DNA from: an uncultured SAR86 cluster bacterium
GTDB taxonomy: Bacteria > Pseudomonadota > Gammaproteobacteria > Magnimaribacterales > D2472
NCBI GenBank assembly: GCA_902591665.1
Contig: CACJBO010000002.1
Location: forward strand, 151,398 to 215,397
Length of the DNA: 64,000 nucleotides
Reading direction: 5' to 3'
Of the stretch, positions 4,068 through 37,841 are shown piece after piece (the stretch's first letter is position 1; each line of letters starts with the position of its first letter). The notes beneath the pieces were generated by a model that was given only the letters and a program-made list of their open reading frames with translations, was not told the origin of the DNA and did not search any database. The translations under genes were made by a program, and so were the position numbers.

Positions 4068-4086
4068 ATGTTAGCAGTGTAAACAT
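4068..4086. promoter_or_regulatory. Putative TetR operator, box 1 (ATGTTAGCAGTGTAAACAT)
   Basis: Imperfect 19-bp palindrome between the divergent adaptor and tetR genes; repeated 29 bp downstream. Confidence 0.75.
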
Positions 4087-4096
4087 GATAGCTAAA

Positions 4097-4115
4097 ATGT
4101 TAGCAGTGTCAACAT
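4097..4115. promoter_or_regulatory. Putative TetR operator, box 2 (ATGTTAGCAGTGTCAACAT)
   Basis: 18/19 identical to box 1; ends 10 bp before the tetR ATG. Confidence 0.75.
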
Positions 4116-4125
4116 TTAAATTAAA

Positions 4126-4746
4126 ATGAAATCATATCATCACGGAAATCTAAAACATGAATTAATAGATTGCGCATGTAAGTTATGTGAACGAGATGGG
4201 TATACAAAATTAAGTATTCGCTCGCTAGCCAAAGAAAGCGGGGTGTCACAAACTGCACCCTATCGTCACTTCGAAACTAAAGAAGCATTATATGCATCAG
4301 TTGCAACAGAAGGATTTAAAAAGCTTTCAGAAGCTTGCTATATTGATGCTGATAAAAAAATTATGAAAAAGCATCTTGTTGAAATGGGATGTAATTATAT
4401 TGATTTTGGTCTCAAAAGTGCTAATACCTATGATCTCATGTTTGGAACTGCAGTTGGTAATTTTGCTGAATATCCTGAATTGTTAGATGCAGCAAATTCA
4501 AGCTATGAAAATTTCAGATCAAATTTTGCTAAATTAGCTAATGAAAGTGATGAAGTAATAGCTTTCAAATGTATTACTTTATGGTCAATGGTACATGGTC
4601 TTGTAGGAATATTAAGAAAAGTTCAGGTAATTCAAGATGCCCCCTTGATGGATCATGAAGCAGGCCCCATGTCGTCTGCTATTCTTATAGCTGATAACTT
4701 AGAAGGTTATTTAGATAAAGCGTTAGATGGGCTTATTCAGAGCTAG
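4126..4746 (+). CDS. TetR/AcrR family transcriptional regulator
   Basis: N-terminal YHHGNLK and HTH (LSIRSLAKESGVSQTAPYRHFETKEAL); divergent from the efflux genes. Confidence 0.93.
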   Translation: MKSYHHGNLKHELIDCACKLCERDGYTKLSIRSLAKESGVSQTAPYRHFETKEALYASVATEGFKKLSEACYIDADKKIMKKHLVEMGCNYIDFGLKSANTYDLMFGTAVGNFAEYPELLDAANSSYENFRSNFAKLANESDEVIAFKCITLWSMVHGLVGILRKVQVIQDAPLMDHEAGPMSSAILIADNLEGYLDKALDGLIQS

Positions 4747-5269
4747 TTACTTCAATTGTTATTTTTTCAGAAACAAAAGGTCCTTGGCCAGCAAAGTTAT
4801 TAATTGATTGTTTTGTATTATGAACAGAAGATCCAAGAATTAGCTGTAACGTATATTTGCCTGGCTCTAATTCAATAGTAGCTTCAGTTTGACCTGCGCC
4901 ATAGTGAAGATGATTCTCATCAAAAGGTATCCAGCCTCTAGGATTCTCATTAACATTTACTAGCAAGTGATGGTGACCAACGGCATGACATTTATTCTCA
5001 GGTCTTTTTTGAACCCCTGCCGGAACTATTTCTATATTTTCAGAGCCAAAAACAACCTTTATATTTTTTGAATCAGAAATATACCCGTCTTGTGGAGACA
5101 CAATATATACTCTTGGGTCTATATCACCACACTCAATATCATCAAGTATAGTTGCTCCAGCTGCAGCCACTAAAACACCACCCATTACAGCAGTTGATAC
5201 TGATGCTGGTACTAAAACACATCCACTTAATAAAGAACTACAAATAGCAGCACAAAGAACTTTATTCAT
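4733..5269 (-). CDS. DUF4399-family putative lipoprotein
   Basis: GHHHLLVN and HLHYGAGQTEATIELEPGKYTLQLILG match the DUF4399 pattern. Start moved to ATG 5269 (MNKVL), which gives a lipobox LLSGC. Confidence 0.7.
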   Translation of the reverse strand: MNKVLCAAICSSLLSGCVLVPASVSTAVMGGVLVAAAGATILDDIECGDIDPRVYIVSPQDGYISDSKNIKVVFGSENIEIVPAGVQKRPENKCHAVGHHHLLVNVNENPRGWIPFDENHLHYGAGQTEATIELEPGKYTLQLILGSSVHNTKQSINNFAGQGPFVSEKITIEVTSSE

Positions 5270-5726
5270 ATGAACCATCCACATAAGTTAAGGTATTGAT
5301 TTCATCTATATTTTTAGACTCAATCACTTTCCCAATAACAATTGTATGAGTGTGATATTCAATCAGTTGATCAACTTCACAGAAAATATTTGCTTGGGCA
5401 TCCTTTAAAAATGGAATGTCTGACAGATCCCACTGATCGGATATAAATCTATTTTTTTCTTCTTCATAATTACTGCAGATATTTGAGAGTTCTTCATGAG
5501 TTTTGGTAAGAAGATTAATGCAATATTTAGTTCCCACTTTTATTGAATCATGAATACCAGCAGTTTTATTTATGCAGACCAATATGCTTGGAGGATCTAT
5601 TGAAACCGATGTAACAGATGAGACAGTAATCGCATTATATTCTTTATTTTCATTTACATTAGACAAGATGCTTACTGAGTAAACATAACTTCTCATTGCT
5701 TTTCTAAAATTATCTTGAAGAGACAT
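5262..5726 (-). CDS. Flavin reductase family protein
   Basis: FRKAMR, AITVSSVTSVSIDPPSILVCIN and HTIVIGKV motifs. Confidence 0.9.
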   Translation of the reverse strand: MSLQDNFRKAMRSYVYSVSILSNVNENKEYNAITVSSVTSVSIDPPSILVCINKTAGIHDSIKVGTKYCINLLTKTHEELSNICSNYEEEKNRFISDQWDLSDIPFLKDAQANIFCEVDQLIEYHTHTIVIGKVIESKNIDEINTLTYVDGSYE

Positions 5727-5791
5727 GTTTGAATTATACTTAGTTTAAATAAAAAAAATATCTGGTTATTTATAATTTTATCAAATAAAAA

Positions 5792-6352
5792 ATGAAGAAT
5801 AGTTTAAGAATATCTGGAGGAAATCTAAGGGGGAAAAAAATACCATTTGAATTTAAAGATTCTCTTAGACCCACTTCAAGCAAGCTTAAAGAAATCTTAT
5901 TTAATTGGATTCAATTCGAAATTCATGAGTGTGTTTGCTTAGATTTATTTGCAGGCACTGGTTCACTTGGTATCGAAGCTCTTTCAAGAGGTTCACCTAA
6001 AGTAATTTTTGTTGAACTTAATAAGAAAAATTATTCGTCTTTATCAATAAATTTAAAAAGTTTAGGTATAAGGGATAGATGTAAAATTTTTTTTAAAGAT
6101 GCATTTTCTTGGCTCAAAAATTATGATCTTTCGGATATTGATATCATTTTTTTAGATCCTCCTTTTAACAAAGATTATGAAACCAAAATTCTTAATCAAT
6201 TATTTAAAAAGAAAGATTTAAAACCATCATGCAAAATTTATCTTGAATATAGTAAGTATAATGAGATTGAAATACCAAAAGGATTTATTGTCCTCAAAGA
6301 AAAAGATGTTGGAGATGTTAAAGCACTGCTCTTAATAAAAGATGAAAATTAG
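5792..6352 (+). CDS. rsmD: 16S rRNA (guanine966-N2)-methyltransferase
   Basis: LRISGGNLRGKK, LRPT, LDLFAGTGSLGIEALSRG, DPPF. Confidence 0.93.
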   Translation: MKNSLRISGGNLRGKKIPFEFKDSLRPTSSKLKEILFNWIQFEIHECVCLDLFAGTGSLGIEALSRGSPKVIFVELNKKNYSSLSINLKSLGIRDRCKIFFKDAFSWLKNYDLSDIDIIFLDPPFNKDYETKILNQLFKKKDLKPSCKIYLEYSKYNEIEIPKGFIVLKEKDVGDVKALLLIKDEN

Positions 6353-7247
6353 AATAGCAACCAGAAAATCAGAATTAGCATTATTTCAAGCAAATTTAGT
6401 TGCTGAAAAGCTTATCGAAAAAAATAATGCTCTACAGGTTGAACTGGTTCCAATGTCTTCAGATGGAGATGAAACAGACGCACCACTTCATCAAATTGGT
6501 GGCAAAGGTCTTTTTATAAATACCCTAGAATCTGCCCTTCTAGAAGAAAAAGCTGATATTGCAGTTCATAGTTTAAAAGATGTTCCAGCAAAACTTGATG
6601 AAAACTTTTGTATTGCAGCCGTTCTTAAAAGGGCTTCTGCTGGCGACATGCTCCTTACTAATAATGGCTGTTCAATCAACGATCTGGCTATAAATTCTAC
6701 AATAGCAACTTCCAGTCCCAGAAGGTATGCTCAAATCAAAAATTTACATCCTGAAATTAAAATTGTTCCTATTAGAGGAAACATAGCAACGAGAATTAGC
6801 AAGCTAGATCAAGAAAATATTGATGGTTTAGTGGTTGCCAAGGCTGCACTAGAAAGACTAAACATAAGTAATAATAATTGCTATGAATTTTCTTTTGAAG
6901 AAATGTTACCAGCAGCCTCTCAGGGCTATATAGGTGTGGAGTGTTTAACATCAAATAAGAAAATTTTAGATATTTTAAAAACAATCAATTCATCAGAAGA
7001 TCTAATTCTTGCTCAAGCAGAGAGAGATTTTGTTTTAAAATTAAATGGGTCATGCCTATCTCCAATTGCTATATATTGCAGACAAAATTTAGATAAAATT
7101 TTAATTTCTGCAAGGGTATTATCTCAAAATGGAGAAAATCAAATTCATAAAGAAATAATCAGCTCTTTTGAATCCATACATAAAGATATCAGAGATTTAT
7201 CTCAAGAGTTTATATCTATGGGTGCTGATAAATTAATCCTTACCTAA
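6342..7247 (+). CDS. hemC: Hydroxymethylbilane synthase
   Basis: IATRKSELAL, GGKGLF, AVHSLKDVP, IRGN, LNGSCLSPI. Confidence 0.95.
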   Translation: MKIRIATRKSELALFQANLVAEKLIEKNNALQVELVPMSSDGDETDAPLHQIGGKGLFINTLESALLEEKADIAVHSLKDVPAKLDENFCIAAVLKRASAGDMLLTNNGCSINDLAINSTIATSSPRRYAQIKNLHPEIKIVPIRGNIATRISKLDQENIDGLVVAKAALERLNISNNNCYEFSFEEMLPAASQGYIGVECLTSNKKILDILKTINSSEDLILAQAERDFVLKLNGSCLSPIAIYCRQNLDKILISARVLSQNGENQIHKEIISSFESIHKDIRDLSQEFISMGADKLILT

Positions 7248-7969
7248 TGATAATTAATACTAGGCCAGAAGAAGTCTCAAAAAAAATTATTGAACTGTGT
7301 GAGCAAGAAAAGATTGAATCTAGACACGTTCATATGTCTAGGATTAAATTTTTGTCTGGTTCAAAAAAACAACAGATATACAGAGAATTAATCAAAAATA
7401 TTCATACATTTTCAAATATAATTTTTACTAGCCAAGCCTCAGCAAAATTTGGCTCTGACTTGTTTAATTTACATCCCGGCCTACTTAATTCAAAACAAAA
7501 TATTTTTTCTGTAGGGGATGCTACTAAAAAAATATTGATTGATAATGGGTTTAAATCGATAACACCAAGCAATAAATCATCTCAAGGCATTATTGATCTA
7601 ATTAAAGAAAAATTTCCAGGTAAAAATTTAATTTTTTGCGGAGAGAATTCAAATATGAATTTGCAAAATGCCTTTAAGGGAAATATGAATGAGGCTGTAT
7701 GTTATAAATTAATATTCGATATAAATCAGCTTCAAAATATACCAAAAAGCTCTGCGGTAATACTCATATATAATTTTTTAACATTTGAATTTATTTATAA
7801 AAACCTTGTAAAGGGTTTAATAGAAAATAAATCATTTGTCCTTGCATCTGAAAGGATTAAATCAGAAGTTTCAAAAATAGTTGAAGAGACAGAAATTCTC
7901 AACAAGATTTATGTTTCAAAGTCTTATATGGATGAGGATATGCTAGATAAGGCTAAAGAGATTATTTAG
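7247..7969 (+). CDS. hemD: Uroporphyrinogen-III synthase
   Basis: N-terminal INTRP, IFTS, VGDAT; translationally coupled to hemC. Confidence 0.8.
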
Positions 7970-9239
7970 ATTTTTTCCCATTTCCAGCCTTCATTGAGGT
8001 GAAGAACTCGTCGTTTGTTTTATGTGACTTCAGTCTGTCAATTAAGAACTGTATTGATTGTGCATCTTCCATCTCATCAAGGATTTTTCTAAGAACCCAC
8101 ATTCTTTGTAGCTCGTCCTCAGAAGTCAACAAGTCCTCTCTTCGTGTGCCCGATCTTCTGATATTAATTGCTGGAAAGATACGTTTTTCTGCAATTTTTC
8201 TTTCCAAATGGATCTCCATATTACCTGTACCTTTAAATTCTTCATAAATAACTTCATCCATTTTAGATCCAGTTTCAACTAAGGCAGTTGCTAAAATAGT
8301 TAGGCTACCTCCTTCTTCTAGATTTCTTGCTGCTCCAAAGAATCTTTTTGGTCTTTCTAGAGCATTTGAATCAACACCCCCGCTTAGTATTTTTCCAGAT
8401 GCTGGTTGAACTGAGTTATATGCTCTTCCAAGTCGAGTAATTGAGTCCAACAAAATAACAACATCTTTTTTATGTTCAACTAGCCTTTTAGCTTTCTCAA
8501 TAACCATGTTTGCTACTTGAACATGTCTGCTTGGGTGCTCATCAAATGTACTTGCGACAACCTCTCCTTTAACAGTTCTTGACATCTCTGTAACCTCTTC
8601 CGGTCTCTCATCGATAAGCAATACTATTAATTCAACTTCTGGATTATTGCTTTTAATAGAATGAGCTATGCTCTGAAGCATCAATGTCTTACCAGCTTTT
8701 GGTGGAGAAACGATTAATCCACGCTGACCTTTACCTATTGGTGCTATTAGATCAATAATTCGTGATGAAAGATCTTCATTAGAGCCGCTTCCCTGTTCAA
8801 GAATTAATCTTTCATTAGGGAAAAGAGGTGTTAAATTTTCAAATAAAATCTTATTTTTTGTATTTTTAGGCTCTTCGCCATTGATAGTGTCGACCTGAAT
8901 TAGAGCAAAGTATCTCTCTTTATCTTTTGGTGTTCTGATTTTGCCAGCAATAGAGTCCCCCTTTCTAAGGCCAAATTTTCTTATCTGACTTGGAGAAACA
9001 TATATATCATCTTCACCTGCACAATATGAACCTTCAGGAGAACGTAAAAAACCAAACCCATCATTTAGTATTTCTAAAACTCCTCCGCCATAAATATCGA
9101 TCCCTTCAGAAGCTTTATGTTTAAAAATTCTAAAAATTATTTCTTGTTTTTTAAGCCTACCAACATCTTCAAGACCAAGCTCGGTTGCTATATCAACCAA
9201 TTCATTAATTGGTTTAACTTTTATTTCAGTGAGATTCAT
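7962..9239 (-). CDS. rho: Transcription termination factor Rho
   Basis: [17 protein letters not shown], Walker [19 protein letters not shown]. Confidence 0.98.
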
Positions 9240-9270
9240 ATAAATTTTTCCGTTTTTATATTAATTAAAA

Positions 9271-9317
9271 GAGGATTTGATAAGGTGATGATCTAAGATC
9301 GTGATGCGAAGATGATA
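9271..9317 (-). promoter_or_regulatory. Candidate rut-like (C-rich, G-poor) tract in the rho leader
   Basis: 15 C versus 3 G in 47 nt on the rho sense strand, in an otherwise AT-rich spacer. Confidence 0.45.
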
Positions 9318-9353
9318 ATTGTTTTTAACTAAAGATGCAAAATTAATCTTTAA

Positions 9354-9680
9354 TTAAACAACAGTACTTATAAACTCCTCTAATTGTTGTTTACTTAAAG
9401 CCCCTATTTCTACTCCTGCAGGCTCTCCGTCTTTAAATATTATTAATGATGGAATTGATCTAATCCCATATTTTGCTGCTAACTCCCTATTTGAGTCAAC
9501 ATCCATTTTACAAACTTTGATTTTATCTTTATTTTCTTCTGCTATTTCTTCTACGGTTGGAGATAATTGTTTACATGGTCCACACCATTCAGCCCAAAAG
9601 TCTACGAGCACCGGCATATCAGAATTTAAAACATCATTGTTAAAATTCTCTTCATCTTGTAATTCTATAACGCTACTCAT
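9354..9680 (-). CDS. trxA: Thioredoxin
   Basis: WCGPC active site; upstream of rho as in other proteobacteria. Confidence 0.97.
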   Translation of the reverse strand: MSSVIELQDEENFNNDVLNSDMPVLVDFWAEWCGPCKQLSPTVEEIAEENKDKIKVCKMDVDSNRELAAKYGIRSIPSLIIFKDGEPAGVEIGALSKQQLEEFISTVV

Positions 9681-10675
9681 TTAGTTGTTATCTCCTTGGA
9701 AATTTCTTTAGCTGCATACGTTAGAATTGCGTCTGCACCGGCTCTTTTAAAGCTTACGAGAGATTCTAACATAACATTCTCGTCTAGCCACCCTTTATTG
9801 ATAGCAAGTTTTAACATGCTGTATTCTCCACTTACTTGATATGCAAATGTTGGAATTTTAAAAGTGTCTTTAACCAATGAAATTATATCAAGATAAGGCA
9901 TACCAGGTTTAATCATTACAATATCTGCACCCTCGCTTATATCCATTGCAACTTCATGAATGGCTTCATTCTTGTTATGAAATGACATTTGATATGAAGA
10001 CTTAGATGCTCCTGCAAGATTGCCAGCTGAGTTTACAGCATCTCTGAAAGGACCATAAAATTTTGAGTTATATTTAGCAGCATAAGACAAAAGAATTGTA
10101 TTTTTATAGTTAGCCTCTTCTAATGCTTTTCTTATAATTCCAATTCTGCCGTCCATCATATCTGAAGGCGCAATAATATCAGCACCCGATTCAGCCAATA
10201 AAAGTGATTGAGATTTTAATGCATCAAGCGTTAAATCGTTATCGACGTAATTATCTTTAATGATTCCATCATGCCCATGATTTGTATAAGGATCTAATGC
10301 AACATCGGCAATAATGATAATCTCTGGAAACCTCTTTTTGATTGATTGGATTGATTTACAAATTAGATTTGATTTATTCAGTGCCTCTTTACCAAAATCA
10401 TCTTTCTTACTCTCTTCAATTACAGGAAATAAGGCAATTGAGTTGACGCCGCTATTTAATACATCTTCTACTTCACTAAGAACACTGTCTGCACTGAATC
10501 TTGATATGTTGGGCATAGAGTCAATCGGCTCTGTCCCTTCAAGATTTTCTTTAATAAATAATGGCTGTATTAAATCATTAGAAGATAAACTTGTTTCAGA
10601 AACTAGCTTAATTAAATTATCACTTGCTCTAAGGCGTCTAAGTCTTGAATTTGGAAAATTTCTTTTTACATTCAT
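9677..10675 (-). CDS. hemB: Porphobilinogen synthase
   Basis: RLRRLR, DVALDPYTNHGHDG, APSDMMDGR, MIKPGMPYLD. Confidence 0.96.
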   Translation of the reverse strand: MNVKRNFPNSRLRRLRASDNLIKLVSETSLSSNDLIQPLFIKENLEGTEPIDSMPNISRFSADSVLSEVEDVLNSGVNSIALFPVIEESKKDDFGKEALNKSNLICKSIQSIKKRFPEIIIIADVALDPYTNHGHDGIIKDNYVDNDLTLDALKSQSLLLAESGADIIAPSDMMDGRIGIIRKALEEANYKNTILLSYAAKYNSKFYGPFRDAVNSAGNLAGASKSSYQMSFHNKNEAIHEVAMDISEGADIVMIKPGMPYLDIISLVKDTFKIPTFAYQVSGEYSMLKLAINKGWLDENVMLESLVSFKRAGADAILTYAAKEISKEITTK

Positions 10676-10680
10676 AGTTT

Positions 10681-12342
10681 TTAATCTGTAATAGCTCCAA
10701 GGCTTGCAGATTTTACACTTTTAGCAAATTTTGACAAAACTCCTTTTTGAGGAGGAATTTTTGGATTTGTCCAATTTGCTAATCTTTTTTCAATTTCTTC
10801 TGATGATACTTTGAGTGTTAGTTCATCTTTCTCAGCATCAATTAGAATAGTATCTCCGTCTTCAACAATAGCAATTACTCCACCATCAGCAGCTTCAGGA
10901 GTAATATGCCCGACCACAAATCCGTGAGTACCACCTGAAAACCTTCCATCTGTAATAAATCCTACTTTATCTCCTAAGCCTTGGCCCATAATTGCAGATG
11001 TTGGTTTCAACATTTCACGCATTCCAGGACCTCCCTTTGGTCCTTCATATCTAATAACCACCACATCACCAGCTTCAATGGATTTATTTAATATCGCTTC
11101 AACGCCTTCCTCTTCAGAATTGAAAACTCTAGCTTTTCCTTCAAAAGAAGTTCCCTCTTTTCCAGTTATTTTTGCCACAGCACCCTCTGATGCTAAATTT
11201 CCGTATAGAATTCTAAGATGACTTGTTGACTTAATTGGGTTCTCAAAACTCCTTATGATGTTTTGATTATCTGCATAAGGTTTAACATTAGACAAGTTTT
11301 CAGCCAGAGTGTTACCAGTAACTGTTATGCATTCTCCATGAAGCAACCCCTTATCAAGAAGTGTTTTCATCAGAGGCTGTATACCTCCGTTAGCATTGAG
11401 TTCTGACATGTAATGAGAACCAAAAGGCTTTAAATCTGCCATAACAGGAGTCTTTTTACCAATTCTTGTAAAATCATCTAAATCTAATTGCACACCAATT
11501 GCATGAGCCATTGCTAGCATATGCAGAACTGCATTTGTAGAACCCCCAAGTGATATAACCACAGTAATTGCATTTTCAAATGCTTCCTTGGTCATTATGT
11601 CAGAAGGTTTTATATCCTTGTCTAGAAGGTTCATAATTGCCTGGCCTGAACCAATGCAATCTTTTTGCTTATCATCAGAAGTTGCATCTTGGCTACTGCT
11701 ACCAGGCAAACTCATTCCAAGCGCTTCAATTGCTGATGCCATTGTATTTGCTGTATACATACCACCACATGAACCAGGGCCTTTGACTGAAATTTTCTCA
11801 ACGTGGATTAAGTCAGATTCTTCTAATTCACCTTTTGAAAATTCTCCAGTCTTCTCGCAGACAGTAACATAGTCAGTATTTTCAGAACTCGGCTTTATTG
11901 AACCGCCGTATATAAATATAGAAGGCCTATTAAGCCTTGCTAAACCAATGATGCAGCCAGGCATATTTTTATCACATCCACCAATAGCAATGACACCGTC
12001 ATAGCCCAAACACCCAACAACAGTTTCAATTGAATCAGCTATAACTTCTCTTGAAACTAAGGAATATTTCATTCCTTGCGTTCCCATAGATATTCCATCT
12101 GAAACGGTAATTGTATTAAATAGAACTCCCTTGCCACCAGAGTCATCAATAGAATGCTCAACTACATCAGCTAATTGATTTATATGCATGTTGCATGGAG
12201 TGACCTTTGCACCAGTTGATGCTATGCCAACAAATGGTTTTTTAAAATCCTCAGACGTAAACCCAACTCCCCTAAGCATAGATCTTGAGGCAGCTTGATT
12301 TGGGCCATCTACAAGATCTTTTGAAAATTTTCTATTTGTCAT
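10681..12342 (-). CDS. ilvD: Dihydroxy-acid dehydratase
   Basis: PCNMH, GCDKNMPG, CGGMYTANTM, TDGRFSGGT. Confidence 0.96.
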   Translation of the reverse strand: MTNRKFSKDLVDGPNQAASRSMLRGVGFTSEDFKKPFVGIASTGAKVTPCNMHINQLADVVEHSIDDSGGKGVLFNTITVSDGISMGTQGMKYSLVSREVIADSIETVVGCLGYDGVIAIGGCDKNMPGCIIGLARLNRPSIFIYGGSIKPSSENTDYVTVCEKTGEFSKGELEESDLIHVEKISVKGPGSCGGMYTANTMASAIEALGMSLPGSSSQDATSDDKQKDCIGSGQAIMNLLDKDIKPSDIMTKEAFENAITVVISLGGSTNAVLHMLAMAHAIGVQLDLDDFTRIGKKTPVMADLKPFGSHYMSELNANGGIQPLMKTLLDKGLLHGECITVTGNTLAENLSNVKPYADNQNIIRSFENPIKSTSHLRILYGNLASEGAVAKITGKEGTSFEGKARVFNSEEEGVEAILNKSIEAGDVVVIRYEGPKGGPGMREMLKPTSAIMGQGLGDKVGFITDGRFSGGTHGFVVGHITPEAADGGVIAIVEDGDTILIDAEKDELTLKVSSEEIEKRLANWTNPKIPPQKGVLSKFAKSVKSASLGAITD

Positions 12343-12347
12343 AATTT

Positions 12348-13946
12348 TTATTCAGATGCATACCTTAAAGCAGCTGTTAATAGTTTTTTAGTATATTCTT
12401 CTTTTGGTTCATCAAAAACTTCCTCTGAAATTCCAGACTCAACAATCTCACCATTTTTCATTACAAAAATATAATCTGACATTGATCTTATAACTTTTAA
12501 GTCATGACTGATAAAAAGATAGGTCAAGCCATATTCATCTTGAATACTCTTAAGAAGATTTATTACTTGTATTTGGATTGATCTATCTAATGCAGAAGTA
12601 GGTTCATCTAAAATCATAAATGAAGGATTCATTATTAATGATCTTGCAATAGCAATTCTCTGTCTTTGTCCTCCTGAAAACTCATGTGGATATTTATTTT
12701 TTGCATTAACTTCTATTCCTACATCTGATAAAACCTTATCTATTTTTAATTCTCTTTCTTTTTTTGATAATTTGAAATGAACTCCTAGCCCTTCTCCAAC
12801 TATCTCTCCAATTGTCATCCTTGGTGAAAGGGAGCCATAAGGATCTTGAAAGACTATTTGGATATTCTTTTTTAGATCTTTCTTTTCTTTAGAAGAATTT
12901 GAATTAAGATCTTTGCCTTTAAAAAATACATCGCCTTCATAAGAAATCAAATTTGCGATTGCTTTTCCAAGAGTTGACTTTCCAGACCCGGATTCACCCA
13001 CCAATCCAATCGTAGTGTTTTCAAATATTTTGAATGAAACATCTTTTACAGCATGGAACGTGCTTTTTTTAAAAATATTTGCAGAAGGAATGTTGTAGTA
13101 AACATTTAAATTATCTACTTGTATTATTGGATTTTTACTTATAGTGCTAGTTTCTTTAGGTTTTGGCTCGGCATCTAAAAGTCTTTTGGTGTAATCATGA
13201 TCTGGATTATTAAAAACATCTGATGTAACTCCTTGCTCAACAATAATGCCATCTTTCATTACACATACATGATCTGAAAACTGCTGAACTAGACCAAGAT
13301 CATGAGTTATAAATAAAATTGACATGCCTAGTTCATTTTTTAATTTAGACATCAAATCTAAAATTTGAGCCTGAATAGTTACATCTAATGCTGTGGTAGG
13401 CTCATCTGCTATAAGTAATTGGGGTTTATTAACTAATGCCATTGCGATCATAATTCTTTGCCTTTGACCACCAGATAATTCATGAGGATATGCATAAAAT
13501 CTTCTTTCAATATCATCTATTTCTACAAGCTCTAAGAGTTTTTTAGCTTCATCTATGGCTTCTTTTTTTGTACTGTCAGTGTGAAGTAATATTGATTCTG
13601 CTATTTGATCGCCAACTCTATGATATGGGTTTAATGATGTCATTGGTTCTTGGAAAACCATTGAAACGATGTTGCCCCTGATATTTAGCAATTTATTTTT
13701 AGAAGCATCAATTATTTCATCGCCTTTAAATTTTATGGATGAAGCTTGCGAATATGATGCCTGAGGTCTTGGCAATAATTGAAGAATAGACATTGCAGTA
13801 ACAGATTTTCCAGATCCAGACTCGCCAACAAGCGCCATTGTCTTATTACTTTGTATATTAAAACTTATATTATCTACTGCTTTAAAACTACCATCCCTGG
13901 TAGCAAAATTTATACTTAAGTTGTTAATTTCTAATATATTACTCAT
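12348..13946 (-). CDS. Peptide/nickel-type ABC transporter ATP-binding protein, two fused NBDs (YejF-like)
   Basis: Two GESGSGKS Walker A and two LSGGQRQR/FSGGQRQR signatures. Confidence 0.9.
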   Translation of the reverse strand: MSNILEINNLSINFATRDGSFKAVDNISFNIQSNKTMALVGESGSGKSVTAMSILQLLPRPQASYSQASSIKFKGDEIIDASKNKLLNIRGNIVSMVFQEPMTSLNPYHRVGDQIAESILLHTDSTKKEAIDEAKKLLELVEIDDIERRFYAYPHELSGGQRQRIMIAMALVNKPQLLIADEPTTALDVTIQAQILDLMSKLKNELGMSILFITHDLGLVQQFSDHVCVMKDGIIVEQGVTSDVFNNPDHDYTKRLLDAEPKPKETSTISKNPIIQVDNLNVYYNIPSANIFKKSTFHAVKDVSFKIFENTTIGLVGESGSGKSTLGKAIANLISYEGDVFFKGKDLNSNSSKEKKDLKKNIQIVFQDPYGSLSPRMTIGEIVGEGLGVHFKLSKKERELKIDKVLSDVGIEVNAKNKYPHEFSGGQRQRIAIARSLIMNPSFMILDEPTSALDRSIQIQVINLLKSIQDEYGLTYLFISHDLKVIRSMSDYIFVMKNGEIVESGISEEVFDEPKEEYTKKLLTAALRYASE

Positions 13947-14950: not shown

Positions 14951-15011
14951 GATTCTTATAAATAATGTTGTACTTTATTTTAATAACTTAGAAGTTTATT
15001 CTTTACACTCT

Positions 15012-15428: not shown

Positions 15429-15454
15429 AAATATAATAAATTTCGCTTAAATTC

Positions 15455-15463: not shown

Positions 15464-15470
15464 CTTAAAA

Positions 15471-28207: not shown

Positions 28208-28299
28208 GATTATTTATATTTCAATAGTTTTTATTAACTAAAAATTAACTTATATTCAGAGTTATACTAAATCATTATTTATAAAAAAGGTGACAAATT

Positions 28300-28728: not shown

Positions 28729-29306
28729 AGACTAGAAATTTTTTCAATGTACTTTGATAAGATTGAAAGTCTTTGAGTGGCATCAAATGCTTCAAGTAAA
28801 TTTTGCTTCTGGATTGAAGTAAGCGGTATCAGGCCTCCAAGATGGTAAGCAACAGAATCGGCAGAATTAAAATCTACTTTGATTGGAAGTTCATTAACTT
28901 TTGGATGCTTTATTATCTGAGATAAGATATTAATTATATCAGGATACTCTGCTAATAAAGCTTGATTATCAACCTCAGGATCTATCTCGGGCTTGATATC
29001 TGCAATATGCAATCCATCTTCAAGTTGACATATATTATTAATTGAAACTTTAGTTTCAGCTTTGACAGTGATGCCAAGAAGACCATTTGGAAGATTATTA
29101 AAATCAACTATTTCAACATAAGTACCTTTTTTAGAAATTCCAAATTCAGATGCATCATTTATTTTCAAAACAATTACAAATCCATGGCTATCTGACATGC
29201 ATTTCTTAATCATCTTTAGATATCTTGGTTCAAAAATTTGTAGTGATTGAATGCTACCAGGCAAGGCAACCAAACCAAGAGGAAAAACAGGCAAGTTATT
29301 TTTCAT
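28725..29306 (-). CDS. LON peptidase substrate-binding domain protein (no protease domain)
   Basis: LPVFPL, LQIFEPRY, KQNLLE. Confidence 0.85.
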   Translation of the reverse strand: MKNNLPVFPLGLVALPGSIQSLQIFEPRYLKMIKKCMSDSHGFVIVLKINDASEFGISKKGTYVEIVDFNNLPNGLLGITVKAETKVSINNICQLEDGLHIADIKPEIDPEVDNQALLAEYPDIINILSQIIKHPKVNELPIKVDFNSADSVAYHLGGLIPLTSIQKQNLLEAFDATQRLSILSKYIEKISSL

Positions 29307-30595
29307 GATAAGAAATCAATAATCGGTTCATAAAGTTTACTACTATCTTTATTTGTCATTAAAAGAACAACATCATAATCTTTTATAATACTTTTTATAT
29401 TACCAATACATTCATCATGGTGGTTGAAAGATTCGTCATCTTTAATAACTTTGTTGTGATCAAGCCATATCACTTTATCAAAAGCAGTTACTGAGTCAAA
29501 AATAGCATTACCATGAGATCCAGAGGACATAGTGTTTGATCCAAGCTCAATAATTCCTAATATTTTATTTTCTTTAAATTCATTCCTGATAGCTTCTGAT
29601 GCATAGGTTATTGCAGTTGGGTGATGTGCAAAATCGTCATAAATTTTCACACCAGAATGCTCTCCTTTATACTCCAGTCTTCTTCGCACTCCATTGAAAC
29701 TTTCTAATGCCTCAATAGAATCGTTTGCTGATATGCCGCATGTGGTAGCAGCCATAATTGCTGAAACATAATTTTTAAAATTATGCTCTCCAATTAAGGG
29801 TAAAGAGTTTAATAAAAATATATCTTCATCTATTTTTACTTCTTTAGAGCTAAAATTAATTTTTAAATTTTTATCATTAATTTTAATAACATTTGACCAG
29901 CATCCCATATCGAGAACATCTAGAACATTCCTATCATCATAAAAACATACAATATTTCCGTTAGATGGAATTATTTTTAAAAGATGATGAAATTGTTTTT
30001 TTATATCATCTAAATTATTAAATATATCAGCATGATCAAACTCTATGTTATTAATAACAAGGGTATCAGGAGAATAATGAATAAATTTTGATCTTTTATC
30101 AAAAAAAGCTGAGTCATATTCATCAGCCTCAATAACAAATATTTCATCGGTTCCAAGAGAAGCTGAACCATCAATATCATTTGAAATTCCTCCAACTAAA
30201 TAACCAATATCTCTACCTGATGACTTAAGAATATGTGTAAGCATATAAGAGGTAGTTGTTTTACCATGTGTTCCTGATACAGCAAATACTTTTCTGTTTC
30301 TAAGAATTTCACCAAGCATTTCAGGCCCTGATTTAAATGGAAGACGATTATTTAATATATGTTCAACGGATTCATTTCCTCTCGATAATGCATTGCCAAT
30401 TACGTATAAATCAGCCTCAGGAAGATCGTTTAATGCATAACCTTCTATTAAATCAATTTTTAAAGCATCTAGATGCTCTGACATCGGTGGATAAAATTGC
30501 ATATCTGAACCTGAGACATCATTACCGGAGTCTTTGAGTATTTGCGCAAGGCCACCCATGAAGGTTCCACAGATGCCTAAGATATGTATCTTCAT
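29303..30595 (-). CDS. mpl: Murein peptide ligase
   Basis: IHILGICGTFMGGLA, GTHGKTTT, EADEYDSAFFDKRSKF, DDFAHHPTAI. Confidence 0.95.
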   Translation of the reverse strand: MKIHILGICGTFMGGLAQILKDSGNDVSGSDMQFYPPMSEHLDALKIDLIEGYALNDLPEADLYVIGNALSRGNESVEHILNNRLPFKSGPEMLGEILRNRKVFAVSGTHGKTTTSYMLTHILKSSGRDIGYLVGGISNDIDGSASLGTDEIFVIEADEYDSAFFDKRSKFIHYSPDTLVINNIEFDHADIFNNLDDIKKQFHHLLKIIPSNGNIVCFYDDRNVLDVLDMGCWSNVIKINDKNLKINFSSKEVKIDEDIFLLNSLPLIGEHNFKNYVSAIMAATTCGISANDSIEALESFNGVRRRLEYKGEHSGVKIYDDFAHHPTAITYASEAIRNEFKENKILGIIELGSNTMSSGSHGNAIFDSVTAFDKVIWLDHNKVIKDDESFNHHDECIGNIKSIIKDYDVVLLMTNKDSSKLYEPIIDFLS

Positions 30596-30648
30596 ATTAG
30601 TTATAATACTTTAACAAGTTTTATTACAACATATTTGGGTGGGGAAAA

Positions 30649-31899
30649 ATGAAAAAAAATGCTTTATATGCTCAATCTGGTGGCGTGACTGCAGTAATAA
30701 ATGCAACAGCAGGTGCTTTAATTCTGGAAGCAAAAAAAAGTAATAAGATTGGAAAGGTTTTTGCTGCTAAAAATGGAATACTAGGAGCGCTTCGTGAAGA
30801 TTTGATTGATACATCAAAAGAATCAAATAATTCTCTATTATCCCTAAGGTACAGACCGGGTGGTATATTTGGATCTTGTAGGTTTAAGCTTAAAGATCTC
30901 GAAACGAGCGAAAAGGAATATAGAAGACTAATTGAGGTATTCAAGGCTCATAATATTGGTTATTTTTTCTACAACGGCGGAAATGATTCCGCCGATACTG
31001 CTTATAAGGTCTCTCAAATAAGTAAAAAACTTAACTACCCAATCCAATGTATTGCTATTCCAAAAACAGTAGATAATGACTTAGCACTCACAGATTGTTG
31101 TCCTGGGTTTGGCTCTGCAGCTAAATATATTGCAACCTCAATACAAGAAGCTTCATTGGATGTTCAATCAATGTCAGAAACCTCAACAAAGGTTTTTATT
31201 ATGGAGGTAATGGGAAGACATGCTGGATGGATGGCTGCCTCATCAGCTTTGGCAAGAAAAAATAAAGGAGATGCTCCACATATTATTCTTTTGCCAGAAA
31301 TTACTTTTAATCAAAAAGAGTTCTTATCACTCGTTAAGAAAACTGTTTCAGATAAAGGTTTTTGCGTTGTTGTTGTGTCAGAGGGTGTTAAAAATAGCAA
31401 AGGTAAATTTCTTTCTGAATCAAATACAAAAGATGCTTTTGGGCATGCTCAATTAGGTGGAGTTGCCCCTTATATAGCAGATCTTATTAACACAAAATTA
31501 AAACTTAAAAACCATTGGGCTGTTTCTGATTATCTTCAAAGAAGTGCGAGTCATATAGCTTCAAAAGTAGATTTAGCGCATGCAGAAGCTGTTGGAGTCC
31601 ATGCTATCAAATATGCTTTAGCTGGTATGAATGGCGTAATGCCAATAATTGTAAGAAATAACAGTAGTAAATATAAATGGAAAATAGAACCAGCTCCACT
31701 ATCGAAAATTGCCAATCTGGAAAAAAAATTACCAAAATCTTTTATTACAAAAAACGGAATGGGCGTTACTACAAAAGCATTAGATTATCTAAACCCACTT
31801 ATTCAGGGAGAATCAAATCCCCCATTTAAAAATGGAATTCCAGATTTAAAAGAATTTAAATTGGTGCCTGTTCAAAAAAAATTAACTACTTGGCGATAA
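30649..31899 (+). CDS. pfp: 6-phosphofructokinase, predicted PPi-dependent
   Basis: AQSGG, GGNDS, PKTVDND, MGRHAGW. Confidence 0.85.
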   Translation: MKKNALYAQSGGVTAVINATAGALILEAKKSNKIGKVFAAKNGILGALREDLIDTSKESNNSLLSLRYRPGGIFGSCRFKLKDLETSEKEYRRLIEVFKAHNIGYFFYNGGNDSADTAYKVSQISKKLNYPIQCIAIPKTVDNDLALTDCCPGFGSAAKYIATSIQEASLDVQSMSETSTKVFIMEVMGRHAGWMAASSALARKNKGDAPHIILLPEITFNQKEFLSLVKKTVSDKGFCVVVVSEGVKNSKGKFLSESNTKDAFGHAQLGGVAPYIADLINTKLKLKNHWAVSDYLQRSASHIASKVDLAHAEAVGVHAIKYALAGMNGVMPIIVRNNSSKYKWKIEPAPLSKIANLEKKLPKSFITKNGMGVTTKALDYLNPLIQGESNPPFKNGIPDLKEFKLVPVQKKLTTWR

Positions 31900-32382
31900 T
31901 CAAGGATTAGCATTTAAGTCCTCAATAATTTTTGAAATATTCTCTTTTAGCTCAACTTTTTCTTCGTCATTCAAGAAAGATCCTATTTCTACATCTTTAC
32001 CCTTAGAGCGAAAGCTTAGTTTAAGTACCTTATTAATATCTTTTGAAATTTGAAAAGAAGTAAAAGTTCTAAATTCCTCCCAGCGATACTCAGCCTTATG
32101 AATGCCTTTTTCTACTATTACCTTATCTTTAGACAAAAATATTTTTTCTCTTTTACCACTCCACCTAAAATTTAAATAAAATGCTATAAGCAAAATACTT
32201 ATTTCTAGACCGGCAAATGGCAATATCAAAGTTGCACCAACTAAATAAAATATAGTTGCTATCCCAAGGCAAATAAATGCAATACTCGAAATAAATATTA
32301 CTCTGTATGTTCCGGTTAACGAGCTATTAGGTTTTATGTATACTCCAAATGAATTTGAACTAATTTTTTGAATAGAAACCAC
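31900..32382 (-). CDS. DUF2244-family membrane protein
   Basis: PNSSL, ILPFAGLE, EIGSFLNDEEK; GTG start. Confidence 0.75.
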   Translation of the reverse strand: MVSIQKISSNSFGVYIKPNSSLTGTYRVIFISSIAFICLGIATIFYLVGATLILPFAGLEISILLIAFYLNFRWSGKREKIFLSKDKVIVEKGIHKAEYRWEEFRTFTSFQISKDINKVLKLSFRSKGKDVEIGSFLNDEEKVELKENISKIIEDLNANP

Positions 32383-32397
32383 GATACAATATAACTA

Positions 32398-33597
32398 ATG
32401 AAAAAAATTATTAATGACTATGCAAATTATACGGTGCCTTTTTACGGACCAGCAGATTTTGTTGTAAAAAAAGCAAAAGGTTCATATGTATGGGATACAA
32501 ATAATAATAAATATATTGATTTTACTGCTGGCATAGCTGTAACAAATTTAGGACATAGTAACAGCGAATTGACAAAAATTCTCAATCAGCAATCTAAAAA
32601 TGTATGGCATTTATCAAACTTATACATAAATGAACATGCTGTTCAACTATCAAAAAAATTATGTCAAAAGACCTTTGCTGATAAAGTTTTCTTTTGTAAT
32701 TCGGGGGCCGAATCAATAGAGGCTGCAGTTAAAACGGCAAGAAAATACACATCCAAGAAATTCAAAAAAGATAAGAATGAAATTATATCTTTCTCAAGTT
32801 CATTTCATGGCAGAACAATGCTCGGTATTGCTTTAGCAAAAGCAAAGAATCTTATTGATGGTTTTGCACCTCTGCCTAAAGGTATAAAAAATCATCCATA
32901 TAATAAAATTGAGGGCCTAGAGAAATTATTTTCAGATAAAACCTCAGCAGTTATTCTTGAATTAGTTCAGTGGCAGTCTGGAATAACAAAAGCAGATCAA
33001 AAGTTTATTTCAAAAATTAAACAACTTGCTAGAAAACATAAAGCTTTAATAATTATTGATGAAGTTCAGTCTGGTATTGGAAGAACGGGTACATTTTTTG
33101 CGTATGAACAATTTAATTTAGTTCCAGATATTTTATGTTTTGCTAAAGGTATAGCAAATGGATTTCCTTTGGGGGGAATTCTTACTTCAAATAAAATAGC
33201 TAGTGCTATGACGGTTGGTTCGCATGGAACAACATTTGGAGGCGGACCAATTGCTTGTGCTATAGGCTCATCAGTTGTTGACACAATTTCTAAAAAATCT
33301 TTTCTGCAAAAAGTAACTAAAAAAGAAAAGATATTTATAAATGAGCTCGATTCAATAAGTAAAAAACTGGGATGTATTCAATCAATATCTTCAGCAGGTT
33401 TATGGGTTAGCGTTGAATTTAATCAGGGTATAAATATAGATAATTTGATTGCTCTGGCTCATACGAAAGGTCTTATGATCTTGAAAGCAAATATTAATAC
33501 AGTCAGATTTTCTCCAAGTTTAATCATAGAAGATGATCTGATTAAAAAAGGTTTAGGGATTTTTGAATCTTCTATTCTTGCTCTTCTGAAGAAATAG
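32398..33597 (+). CDS. Class III PLP aminotransferase, ArgD/AstC-like
   Basis: [38 protein letters not shown]. One active-site motif is atypical (see findings). Confidence 0.85.
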
Positions 33598-35833
33598 TTT
33601 CAACCTCTTCAATCATTCTATCTACTTTTCTGTAGCCTTGGGGCAACATATTTCCTCGTTTAGCTCTAGAAGAAATATAGTTCTCTAAATCCTTTAATTT
33701 TAAAGTTAAAAATCTTTTGCCGCTCTCAATTCTTAATGAACTAACAGGAGATAGGAGCTGTGCATGAGCCATGAATTCTTCTTTTGCAACAAATTTTGGT
33801 GTTGGAATATTAATTATCTTATTTCCTTTACCTTTCGCAAGAACAGGTAATTCATCTATTTTAAATATTAGTAATCTCCCAATATTTGATACAGCAGCAA
33901 TATAAACATGATCATCTCGAACCCTTATAGCTCTTAAGAGATCAGCATCATTGGGTAGTTTCATGAAAGCCCTACCTGACTTTTTATTAGAAACCATATT
34001 TTTAAATTCTGAAATATAACCATATCCAGCAGTATTCATAATCATATATTTATCATCATCATTACCAATTAAGGTCGATATAAATTTGACCCCAGAATCT
34101 GCAGTGACTCTGCCTGAAATTGGATCACCCATACCCCTTGCTGATGGAAGTGAATGACTTGGAAGAGAATACGCTTTACCATTTGAATCAAGAAAGACTG
34201 CAAGCTGATTACTTTTTCCACGACAGAAATCTTGAAGCTTATCTTCTCCTCGATATGATAAAGAACTCGGATCAATTTCATGTCCTTTTGCGCTTCTAAT
34301 CCATCCAGCTTCTGAAAGAACTACTGTTATAGATTCAGTTACCAGCGTTTCCTCCTCAGAGAATACTTTTGCTTCAGAAGAATCTTTTATTGGAGACTTT
34401 CTTTCATCACCAAACTCATCTTTTATTTCAAGCAATTCTTTTTTGATTAGGGTTTTGAGTCTAGTTTTAGAATTCAATATTTTTTCAATATCATCTCTTT
34501 CATCAACTAACGAATCTCTCTCTTGTTCAAGTTTAATTTGTTCAAGCTTTGCAAGTTGCCTTAATCTAATTTCAAGAATTGCATTGGCTTGAATATCTGA
34601 TAGTTTGAAAGCTTTTATAATTTCTTTTTTAGGCTCATCTGACTCTCTTATGATTTTGATAACTTTATCAAGATCCAAATAAACTATTAAAAGACCCTCA
34701 AGTATATGAAGCCTATCATTAACCTGATCTAGTCTATGCTCTAATTTTCTTGTAACTGTATTTTTTCTAAAAACAAGCCACTCTTTAAGCAATTCAACTA
34801 ATGAGAAAACTTTTGGGCCACCTTTCAAAGAAATAAGGTTCATATTTGCTCTGTAATTCTTTTGAAGATCGGTCGATGCAAACAGATGATTCATAACATC
34901 TTCTGCATTCACTCGATTAGACTTTAATGTAATTACCAGTCTTACTGGTTCTTCATGATCGCCCTCGTCAGCCAAATCCACAACCATGGGTATTTTCTTT
35001 TTAAGCATTTGGTCAGCTATCTGTTCGAGAATTTTTGAACCAGAAGCCTGATAAGGAAGAGCATTAATAATAATTTCATTTTTTTCCTGTTCCCAATGGG
35101 CTTGTGCTTTAAACCCCCCTCTTCCAGTCGAATAAATTTCCTCAAGCTCTTCATTGCTTGCAATAATTGGTGCATGGTTTGAAAAATCAGGTCCTTTAAT
35201 GATTTTTAAAAGGTCTTTTAATTCTGATTTTGGGTTTTCTAAAACATGAATGGTCGCATCTATGACTTCATTAATATTATGTGATGGGATATCAGTTGCC
35301 ATTCCCACAGCGATACCAGAGGTACCATTTAATAGAATAGAAGGCAATTTAGCAGGAAAAATTACTGGTTCTAAAAGAGAGCCATCAAAGTTTGGCTGCC
35401 AATCAACTGTTCCTGACTTGAGCTCAGAGATCAGCAAATCTGCAAATTTAGTTAATTTTGATTCTGTATACCTCATTGCTGCAAATGATTTAGGATCATC
35501 TTGTGAACCCCAGTTACCCTGACCATCTACAAGAGGATATTTAAAGGAAAAATTCTGAGCCATTAAAACCATGGCTTCATAAGCAGCACTATCTCCATGG
35601 GGGTGAAACTTACCTATGACATCGCCGACAGTCCTTGCTGATTTTTTATACTTAGATCCCGCATCTAATCCCAATTCAGACATGGCATATAAGATCCTTC
35701 TTTGAACTGGTTTTAATCCATCCCCAATATTTGGTAAAGCTCTATCTAAAATTACATACATTGCATAATTTAGATAAGATTCTTCTGCGTACTGTTTAAG
35801 GCTTATTGAATTTGTATCTGATTGCTCTTTCAT
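33572..35833 (-). CDS. parC: DNA topoisomerase IV subunit A
   Basis: [23 protein letters not shown]. Confidence 0.96.
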
Positions 35834-35835
35834 AA

Positions 35836-37731
35836 TTATATTTTTGCTAATGAGCCTTTTTTCTCAAGCCATTCTTTTCTTGCAGCTGCATTTTTCTTTG
35901 ATAAAAGAAGATCCATCATTGAGTTAGCATTATCGCTTGAGCTAATAGAAAGTTTTACAAGCTGCCTTGTTGATGGATCCATGACAGTTTCTCTTAACTG
36001 AGAAGGATTCATCTCTCCCAAACCTTTGAATCTCTGAATATTTATCTTTGGTTTACCTTTTTTACTTTTAAAATTTTTAACAATCTCATCCCTTTGAGAG
36101 TCATCCAAAGCATATAACACTTCTTTGCCACAATCGATTCTATATAGAGGTGGCATTGAAATATATATACGTCCCTCTTGCACTAAGGGTTTGTAGTGTC
36201 TCAAGAAAAGAGCGCATAATAATGTTGCTATATGTAATCCATCAGAGTCTGCATCAGCTAAAATACAAATTTTTCCATATCTTAAAGATGATAAATCACT
36301 GTTACCAGGCAATACACCAATAGCAGTAGAAAGATTTTTTATCTCTTGAGATTTTATAATTTCAGCACTTTCTAAGTCCCATGTATTTAATATTTTTCCG
36401 CGTAGCGGCATTATTGCTTGAAATGATCTTTCTCTAGCCTGTTTAGCTGAACCACCAGCAGAATCTCCCTCAACAAGGAATAACTCAGTTTCATTTAAAT
36501 CCTGACTATTACAATCAGAAAGTTTTCCTGGCAATGCTGGTCCTTTAAAAGTTTTCTTTCGCTCTACAATATTAGAAACTTTTGCCCGTGTCTGCGCAGA
36601 AATAATTGCAAGCTCAGCAATTTTTTCCCCTTCCTCAGTATGAGTATTAAGCCAAATACTCAATATATCTTTGGTGGTACTTGACACAAATGACATGTGA
36701 TCTTTAGAGTCTAGTCTTTCTTTAGTTTGACCAGCAAACTGAGGATTTTGTAACTTTGAAGAAACTATAAAAATAGCATTATTTATTATGTCATCTGCAT
36801 TTATTTTTAAGCCTTTAGGTAGCAAATTTCTGTATTCACAAAATTCTTTTATAGACTCTAAGAGGCCTGATTTAAAACCATTGAGGTGAGAACCACCTTG
36901 AGCGGTAGGAATTAAATTTACATATGTCTCATCAAGTTTATTTTTGGGGGGTTTCGGTGACCAATTTATAGCAAACTCTAGTTCCTGAGCACTACCTTCT
37001 TTTGCGCATATTATTGAATCTTCTAATATAAGTTCTGCACCCTCTGATGATTCATTAAGATAACTTTTTAAGCCATCTTCAAAGTACCACTTCTCTTTAT
37101 CATTAGGTTTTTTCTCATTAATAAATTCAATGGTTAAGCCTGGGCAAAGCACTGCTTTTGCCTTTAGTAAGTGTTTTAAGGTTTTAACTTGTACATTAAT
37201 ATCTTCGAAATATTCTGGATTGGGCTTAAAGGTAATTGAAGTTCCAGTGTTTCTTAAGCCAACATCTCCAATTTTCTTAAGCTCACTAACCTTATCGCCG
37301 TTACTAAAATCTATTTGAAATTCTTGGGAGTCTCTTTTAACTTTGACTTCTAATGCTTCGGATAGAGCATTTACAACAGAAACTCCAACTCCATGTAGTC
37401 CGCCAGAAAAATTATAATCGTCACCTGAAAATTTTGCCCCAGCATGAAGCTTACACAAAATTAATTCAACACCAGTAACCTTGTGCTCGGGATGGATATC
37501 AACGGGCATTCCTCTTCCATTATCTGAGACTTTGATGTTGCCATCCTTCAAGAGTGATATTTTTATATTTGAACAATGACCAGATAAGGCTTCATCAACT
37601 GAATTATCTAAAACTTCTTGTATTAAATGGTTAGGATTTGATGTATCTGTGTACATCCCAGGTCTTTTTTTTACAGGATCTAAACCTGATAAAACCTCGA
37701 TTGCTTCTGCATCATATGAATTTTTTGCCAA
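35836..37731 (-). CDS. parE: DNA topoisomerase IV subunit B
   Basis: [33 protein letters not shown]; TTG start. Confidence 0.96.
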
Positions 37732-37820
37732 TTTTAAGATGCCTTATTAATGATTGAACTTATGAAAGATATTCTACTCTAAGAAATATTAAAAGAATTA
37801 TAAAATATAAAAAATTTACA

Positions 37821-37841
37821 AATGTTTACACTGTAAACATT
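37821..37841. promoter_or_regulatory. Perfect palindrome AATGTTTACA-C-TGTAAACATT upstream of tolC (putative TetR operator)
   Basis: 10-bp arms. The 19-bp core is 17/19 identical to the box at 4068-4086 and 16/19 to the box at 4097-4115. Confidence 0.75.

Follow-up and report, generated by a model that had tools for sequence, protein, structure and literature searches.

A pump-linked TetR-family regulator with predicted operators at its own locus and at a distant tolC gene in an uncultured SAR86 bacterium

In Tn10, TetR binds as a dimer to two 19-bp operators, tetO1 and tetO2, which lie about 30 bp apart (centre to centre) within the overlapping, opposed promoters of tetR and tetA. Multi-operon TetR-family regulons have been defined experimentally for MtrR of Neisseria and for AmtR and McbR of Corynebacterium, each with operators unrelated to the one described here. 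Few uncultivated groups of bacteria in the surface ocean are as abundant as SAR86, but we know of no experimental work on its gene regulation, and our literature search found no published work on a SAR86 TetR. Here we describe a stretch of 64,000 nucleotides from an uncultured SAR86 cluster bacterium (contig CACJBO010000002.1; the whole stretch is called the window, and its GC content is 33%), in which a tetR gene stands beside the genes of a resistance-nodulation-division (RND) efflux pump. The nearest relatives of this DNA are SAR86 genomes, which confirms its origin. The encoded regulator probably controls the pump, itself and a tolC gene about 34 kb away.

Expression of tolC in Escherichia coli depends on the activators MarA/SoxS/Rob, and the targets of AcrR are acrAB, marRAB and soxRS (PMC9769551). 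In Vibrio cholerae, loss of the TetR-family protein AtrR (VCA0767) raises the expression of vexRAB and of the unlinked tolC more than 10-fold, and the paper that describes it reports neither an operator nor direct binding (PMC10805010). AtrR is thus already a genetic precedent for a TetR-family protein that controls an RND pump together with an unlinked tolC.

Like Tn10, the SAR86 locus has 19-bp dyads, 29 bp apart, in promoters that appear to face each other, such that the regulator would control its own gene and an exporter. Unlike in Tn10, this exporter is a tripartite RND pump and not a major facilitator superfamily antiporter, the regulator is of the YHHGxL/WHG clade (with a TetR_C_33 domain), and at least one further predicted operator lies 34 kb off at tolC. 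As with AcrR and acrAB of E. coli, the SAR86 tetR gene is divergent from genes for an adaptor and an RND permease, and the channel is encoded elsewhere, with tolC near parE; what sets the SAR86 repressor apart from AcrR is its own predicted operator on the tolC promoter. In its working the system resembles AcrR/AcrAB-TolC, but it falls outside that orthologous group, scoring 21 bits against a cutoff of 271 for AcrR, 34 against 765 for AcrA and 125 against 2150 for AcrB in the equivalog models. Its logic, one TetR-family repressor over an RND operon and an unlinked tolC, is that of AtrR; the SAR86 TetR, however, is encoded beside its pump, which AtrR is not, and is known from its sites, whereas AtrR is known from genetics.

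Three matching dyads in the window

The genes and putative operators on which the argument rests are as follows (PWM, position weight matrix; the dyads carry no strand).

3..3059, minus strand: RND inner-membrane permease; 3′ end truncated by the window edge (reading frame open to the window start), start overlapping the adaptor stop
3056..4042, minus strand: periplasmic adaptor (membrane fusion protein), first gene of the pump operon; Pfam HlyD_3 and HlyD_D23
4068..4086: operator box 1, ATGTTAGCAGTGTAAACAT; PWM 28.6 bits, kept in all orthologous loci
4097..4115: operator box 2, ATGTTAGCAGTGTCAACAT; PWM 28.0 bits, right half holding the candidate pump −35
4126..4746, plus strand: TetR-family repressor of the YHHGxL/WHG clade, 206 aa; Pfam TetR_N and TetR_C_33
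37822..37840: tolC operator, ATGTTTACACTGTAAACAT, in the parE-tolC spacer; PWM 29.9 bits
37864..39195, plus strand: TolC-family outer-membrane channel; Pfam OEP (PF02321), 2.5e-62, in two stretches, as expected of its two repeats

Boxes 1 and 2 are 19-bp dyads 29 bp apart between tetR and the adaptor/RND operon, and the third dyad, about 34 kb from them, is the core of a perfect palindrome, AATGTTTACAcTGTAAACATT (37821-37841), that ends 22 nt ahead of the tolC ATG at 37864. A preliminary description, made from the letters of this DNA, had given the same coordinates and sequences, which held when we re-read them, and the same identities for the adaptor, RND, TetR and tolC genes, which the Pfam and TIGR matches bear out. 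It counted 17/19 identical positions between the palindrome and box 1; this is correct for the minus-strand reading of the palindrome, but the plus strand gives 16/19. It also took the tolC copy to be the only perfect palindrome. This is so inside the window, but the perfection is not kept: relatives hold 7-9 of 9 symmetric pairs, and the perfect palindrome at tolC is specific to the lineage of the window.

Searching the window for box 1 with up to three mismatches returned the three sites only, where 0.03 would be expected per window. A PWM made from SAR86 sites, applied to the 64-kb window and to 20 shuffles, gave the three sites 28-30 bits and everything else in the window less than 12 bits, with 0 matches in the shuffles; the preliminary description had proposed such a scan for the whole genome, and over the 64 kb it found only the three sites. 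No loose form of the motif occurs elsewhere in 771 kb of SAR86 DNA. A fourth, weak match (5668-5686; PWM score 4.3 bits) lies within the flavin-reductase gene and was not taken as a site. A chance origin of the three sites is excluded.

The permease matches Pfam ACR_tran (2.7e-108, residues 3-1015 of the 1021-position model) and scores far under the NCBIfam cutoffs of named pumps, and is therefore a divergent RND protein. The adaptor stop and permease start overlap by 4 nt, with both genes in one operon, and the adaptor reaches 166.8 bits with TIGR01730 (RND_mfp) against a cutoff of 94.9. The channel scores 323.7 bits with TIGR01844 (cutoff 225.15) and 339 bits with the E. coli TolC equivalog model (cutoff 495), and is therefore a family member and not a strict equivalog.

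Conservation of the sites and their promoters

With the TetR protein as query, a metagenome scan yielded 80 marine loci (TetR identity 57-95%); none of those with sufficient upstream sequence lacks either box, while the spacer and flanks vary. Reduced to distinct orthologous SAR86 regulatory regions, both boxes are conserved in 56/56, spaced 28-32 bp apart, with no variation among the 56 in the right half of box 2, TGTCAACAT. TTGAC[T/A] begins exactly 25 nt ahead of box 1 in 54 of the 56 regions, amid neighbouring sequence that varies. These fixed positions and a promoter scan give four candidate promoter elements.

4043..4048, plus strand: candidate tetR −35, TTGACT, at the fixed TTGAC position of 54/56 regions
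4066..4071, plus strand: candidate tetR −10, TAATGT, 17 nt past the −35 and overlapping the first 4 nt of box 1
4085..4090, minus strand: candidate adaptor/RND −10, TATCAT, overlapping the last 2 nt of box 1
4107..4112, minus strand: candidate adaptor/RND −35, TTGACA, inside the right half of box 2

The scan itself found TTGACA-16-TATCAT (4112-4085, minus strand), with 11/12 consensus matches and pointing into the adaptor gene; orthologous regions have TATCAT, TATTAT or ATTAAT at the −10 position. The tetR and pump promoters would thus face each other, with the edges of the two −10 elements and the two likely start sites under box 1 and the pump −35 under box 2. Two conserved palindromes overlapping promoter elements are what is expected of TetR repressors, and since the boxes overlap both promoters, the bound protein would shut off tetR and the pump together.

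A divergent adaptor homologue is found in 68/68 tetR loci with enough upstream sequence, and no outer-membrane factor gene lies within 6 kb of tetR in the 80 metagenome loci. The pump therefore appears to need an unlinked TolC, and the split arrangement appears to be ancestral in the SAR86 group. The only OEP gene seen in the window is tolC (37864..39195); that the pump of the window docks to this TolC is circumstantial, predicted from gene context.

For tolC, we sampled upstream regions blind to the motif, taking eight TolC protein clusters (82-98% identity) and the contigs that encode them, which gave 10 distinct upstream regions. The dyad is at the same position in 10/10, and sequence further upstream cannot be aligned between lineages. 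A DNA-pattern scan of 185,579 species genomes (one genome per species; such a scan yields positives only, and 120 matches were listed) adds SAR86 species with the site at tolC, with TolC identity down to 68% among the matches listed. Over 18 distinct regions the site holds 1.78 bits/column in its 19 columns, against 0.68 and 0.75 in the 30-nt flanks. The boxes of both loci are thus conserved in related SAR86 genomes (56/56 tetR regions, 10/10 tolC regions), a check that the preliminary description had set for its proposal.

Three further features bear on what is regulated at this site.

35836..37731, minus strand: parE, divergent from tolC across a 132-bp spacer
37852..37857, plus strand: candidate tolC −10, TAAAAT, with exactly 6 nt between it and the ATG; assigned from the conserved spacing
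39200..40009, plus strand: fpg/mutM, beginning 4 nt past the tolC stop; Pfam Fapy_DNA_glyco, H2TH and zf-FPG

TA[A/G][A/G]AT-N6-ATG is found in every lineage of the clade to which the window belongs (in the sequence labelled L092, L numbers being our own labels in the comparison set, it fits if the second ATG is the start), and no Shine-Dalgarno sequence stands at a normal distance from the tolC ATG. The TAAAAT-N6-ATG arrangement suggests a leaderless tolC mRNA. Under this reading the operator would cover the −35 region, from about −42 to −24, as the preliminary description had it; the strict spacing in the clade makes this plausible, but the TAAAAT box is not the sole possible promoter. In the distant lineages L140 and L151 only 11 nt separate the site from the ATG, and its first two bases are shared with a TTGACA-18-T[C/T]TAAT promoter, which would be the same geometry as at tetR; a perfect TATAAT overlaps the tolC site likewise in SAR86A-type genomes. 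Because the operator would sit on core promoter elements under either reading, repression by occlusion is favoured.

The adjacency of tolC and fpg is kept in all related loci, with a gap of 3-6 nt, and the two genes are probably co-transcribed, so that fpg, a DNA-repair glycosylase gene, would come under the efflux repressor as well. On the other side of the spacer, parC-parE (33572-39195 stretch) is the immediate neighbour of tolC and divergent from it. The E. coli K-12 tolC gene likewise points away from a divergent cluster, nudF-yqiB-cpdA-yqiA-parE, which makes the two tolC genes positional orthologues, and the SAR86 order looks like a streamlined form of that neighbourhood. Two genes downstream of tolC is a proteorhodopsin gene (40674-41429; Bac_rhodopsin 5.4e-44), near which are genes for an acyl-CoA dehydrogenase (44844..46058), a TonB-dependent receptor (46117..48546) and a LysR regulator (48670..49563). 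At the other locus, DUF4399 and flavin-reductase genes (4733-5726) converge on the tetR 3′ end with a 14-nt overlap; among relatives with enough flank, flavin reductase lies downstream of tetR in 54/54 and DUF4399 in 39/54, and no operator was found for these two genes.

In the model that we infer, a TetR dimer would bind the 19-bp dyads ATGTnnrCA-s-TGynnACAT and act as a repressor and not as an activator. From boxes 1 and 2, on face-to-face promoters, it would silence its own gene and the pump, and from the third operator, on the tolC core promoter, it would govern tolC, probably with fpg. A ligand, probably hydrophobic, would bind the C-terminal domain and cause the repressor to leave all three sites, a release predicted as a trait of the repressor family; permease, adaptor, channel and regulator would then be induced together. 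The mechanism is textbook TetR repression, a fairly ordinary type of regulation, and is well supported.

The TetR clade and the regulator of tolC

The window TetR has the helix-turn-helix domain of its family (TetR_N, PF00440; 4.8e-10, 39.5 bits against a cutoff of 24, residues 13-58) and an all-helical C-terminal domain (TetR_C_33, PF13305; 1.8e-06, 29 bits against a cutoff of 26.8), and it carries a WSMVHG motif. Its recognition helix, ..SQTAPYRHF.., is conserved across the clade (GVS..APYRHF in homologues). No NCBIfam model reaches its cutoff for this protein, and the best match in the PDB is 3on2 (E = 7e-14), an unannotated structural-genomics entry. Literature searches on the half-site, the WHG motif, PF13305 and SAR86 TetR proteins returned nothing relevant, and no member of the clade appears to have been characterised. 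The PmeR operator was considered as a relative and rejected; it contains TGTAAACA and is otherwise unrelated.

Compared with the closest reference genome (L169), the tetR-adaptor intergenic region is 97.6% identical and the adaptor and RND genes 92%. The ligand-binding half of tetR (4336-4746) is only 79.8% identical in DNA, where flanking genes are 92-98% and the operator region 97.6% identical; the sensor domain thus appears to be a local hot spot of divergence or recombination, and inducers would be predicted to vary from one lineage to the next.

The link between dyad and protein comes from the genome scan. In 62 of the 120 listed matches, a homologue of the window TetR is encoded within 400 bp of the dyad (e.g. 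L099:3024, L104:5308, L121:4563 and L175:5183; L099-L217), in genomes of 28-74% GC from more than 10 phyla, including Actinomycetota, Bacillota, Desulfobacterota, Spirochaetota, Alpha- and Gammaproteobacteria, Acidobacteriota, Cyanobacteria and others. About a hundred matches would be expected by chance in such a scan, as estimated from 33 bits of pattern information and 1.2e12 positions; one match (L133), inside a ferredoxin-like coding sequence, was treated as a chance hit. The homologues beside the dyad share N-terminal YHHG[D/N]L[R/K], ..APYRHF and W..HG motifs. They belong to a large clade, with 3138 representatives in a 50%-identity library at E<=1e-10; among the top 150, 133 are full-length, of which 125 have YHHGxL and 118 W..HG. 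The genes near clade members differ (old yellow enzyme, carotenoid oxygenases, adaptor, FMN reductase, radical-SAM protein, others). The same dyad beside homologues across phyla ties the motif to this clade of TetR proteins, and the clade appears to keep one ancestral operator sequence across phyla. That protein and operator stay paired is strong, if indirect, evidence that the window TetR most likely binds the dyad. The proposal that one local TetR acts at tolC thus gains support from the conservation of the tetR boxes, that of the tolC site, and the dyad-TetR pairing in more than 10 phyla.

Several points weigh against this proposal. A consensus promoter scan near the tolC site found no canonical promoter, and the position of the tolC promoter is not confident, two architectures being possible. 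Both kinds of site in one genome are seen in the window and, among the matches listed, in one metagenome-assembled genome (CAJXAZ01, which has the tetR boxes and the tolC site); the count stops there because the genome scan yields positives only. The visible part of the genome is 64 kb, and a paralogue encoded elsewhere may bind the same dyad. TolC normally serves several exporters, so there could be a cost to placing it under one local repressor, except where repression is leaky or where the regulator also controls the other exporters. An AlphaFold model from 26 close homologues is all-helical, with 9 helices, but has a mean pLDDT (predicted local distance difference test) of 53 and low confidence over residues 78-206, which was too poor for a fold search and gives no reading of the ligand pocket. 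Finally, the entire case is one of comparison between sequences.

If the motif at tolC is shared but the regulator is not, the dyad could be bound by a clade paralogue encoded elsewhere or by an unrelated protein. The limited view of the genome leaves room for this, as does the size of the clade (3138 representatives), which makes paralogues conceivable; a possible example is the TetR of SAR86 locus L194, 38% identical and encoded next to an adaptor/RND pair. Yet all 68 SAR86 TetR relatives with enough flank are in the same pump context, SAR86 has small genomes (with contigs of about 1.2 Mb), and the conserved recognition helix means that a paralogue would compete at the same sites. A hidden Markov model (HMM) of the clade, applied to the window and to 23 SAR86 blocks carrying unlinked sites, gave one match in the 64 kb, the 4126..4746 reading frame, and no clade member in the 23 blocks. 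We regard a different regulator at tolC as unlikely. That the same TetR binds there to activate, or merely to modulate, for instance from upstream of the real promoter, seems somewhat less likely again: the consensus scan defined no tolC promoter, and with TAAAAT as −10 the operator centre would fall near −33, from where some regulators activate, but TetR-family proteins are overwhelmingly repressors. Moreover, the promoter of L140 and L151 overlaps the first bases of the site in the classic geometry of occlusion, as at tetR, and loss of AtrR in V. cholerae raises tolC expression (PMC10805010).

The location of the dyad in a 132-bp spacer shared with parE, about 90 nt from the parE start, would also allow it to serve parE/parC (topoisomerase IV) or both divergent genes. 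The distance from site to tolC is nearly constant at 11-27 nt, however, whereas that to parE varies, and in L148, where parE is 1.7 kb off, the site still adjoins tolC, which points to tolC and not parE as the regulated gene. An essential housekeeping topoisomerase would moreover be an unlikely target for an efflux repressor, and we consider a role in parE control very improbable. Least probable of all, to the point of being hardly credible, is an origin other than protein binding, either as a repeat that arose by chance in AT-rich DNA or as a structure, for example a terminator or a hairpin in RNA or DNA. The GC content of 33% and the 9-bp stem open to the sequence speak for this, but only 0.03 such sites are expected per window, the predicted fold is weak (−6.7 kcal/mol, z = −0.9), and the site is kept while its flanks diverge. 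Substitutions in it mostly break the symmetry, leaving 7-8 of 9 pairs, and do not compensate each other, as expected of degenerate protein half-sites (TG[T/C]nnACAT) and not of a hairpin. With no Rfam match in the window either, an RNA element was rejected. On balance, we consider it likely, and with good confidence, that the pump-linked TetR controls the pump, itself and the distant tolC.

Further predicted targets and the meaning of the regulon

At least 13 SAR86 matches of the pattern scan lie at neither the tetR nor the tolC locus. In at least seven other SAR86 species, the dyad, mostly in two copies 37-42 bp apart, is found between a rhodanese/GMC-oxidoreductase pair and an operon for a small secreted PAN-like protein, a patatin-like phospholipase and a TonB-dependent receptor (L120:384, L126:1139, L130:1361, L180:5736, L188:5356/5398, L212:7925/7967, L214:6689). 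A perfect dyad stands about 20 nt upstream of a gene for an AurF-like di-iron oxygenase in at least three SAR86 species (L124:4208, L136:4185, L161:136), with cobS/cobT-like genes before it and a beta-helix (NosD-like) protein gene after it. In at least two species the dyad lies 19-22 nt before a second adaptor/RND pair (L131:1221, L142:3918; also L228-L230 at about 860), whose RND protein is only 24% identical to that of the window and which has a DnaT-like/lambda-P-like pair upstream in every case.

An unbiased look-up of the second adaptor found the operator in one abundant lineage (94% identity to L142) and its absence in three lineages at 76-78% adaptor identity (L231-L239), and this pair was accordingly rejected as a core member of the regulon. 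The absences also show that sampling blind to the motif can return negatives. None of the patatin/TonB-receptor, AurF-like or second adaptor/RND loci is present in the window. It appears, then, that the conserved core consists of the tetR-pump and tolC sites, and that the extra targets are accessory and lineage-specific. The preliminary description had drawn the regulon as one split pump. The conservation of the pump and tolC sites upholds this for the core, but the picture understates the regulon of other SAR86 species, in which, to judge from the placement of the dyads, it can exceed one pump. As with MtrR, AmtR and McbR, a local target is combined with unlinked predicted operators; unlike in those systems, the extra targets are lineage-specific, and none is seen in the window. 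We suggest, tentatively and with some doubt, that the YHHG/WHG-type TetR may be a SAR86 master switch for the envelope traffic of hydrophobic compounds and not just a local pump repressor.

The analysis gives a concrete predicted regulator-operator pair and a small regulon, with three sites defined to the base, for an uncultivated and globally abundant bacterium. It points to a way in which a streamlined genome would coordinate pump parts encoded 34 kb apart, with a direct repressor site on tolC in place of the MarA/SoxS/Rob layer of E. coli. The clade may also offer an orthogonal family of repressors and operators for synthetic biology. One operator across so large a clade would allow regulons to be predicted for thousands of proteins: if the reading is true, the operator code has remained nearly unchanged in thousands of clade members from more than 10 phyla, and their regulons would be readable from genome sequence.

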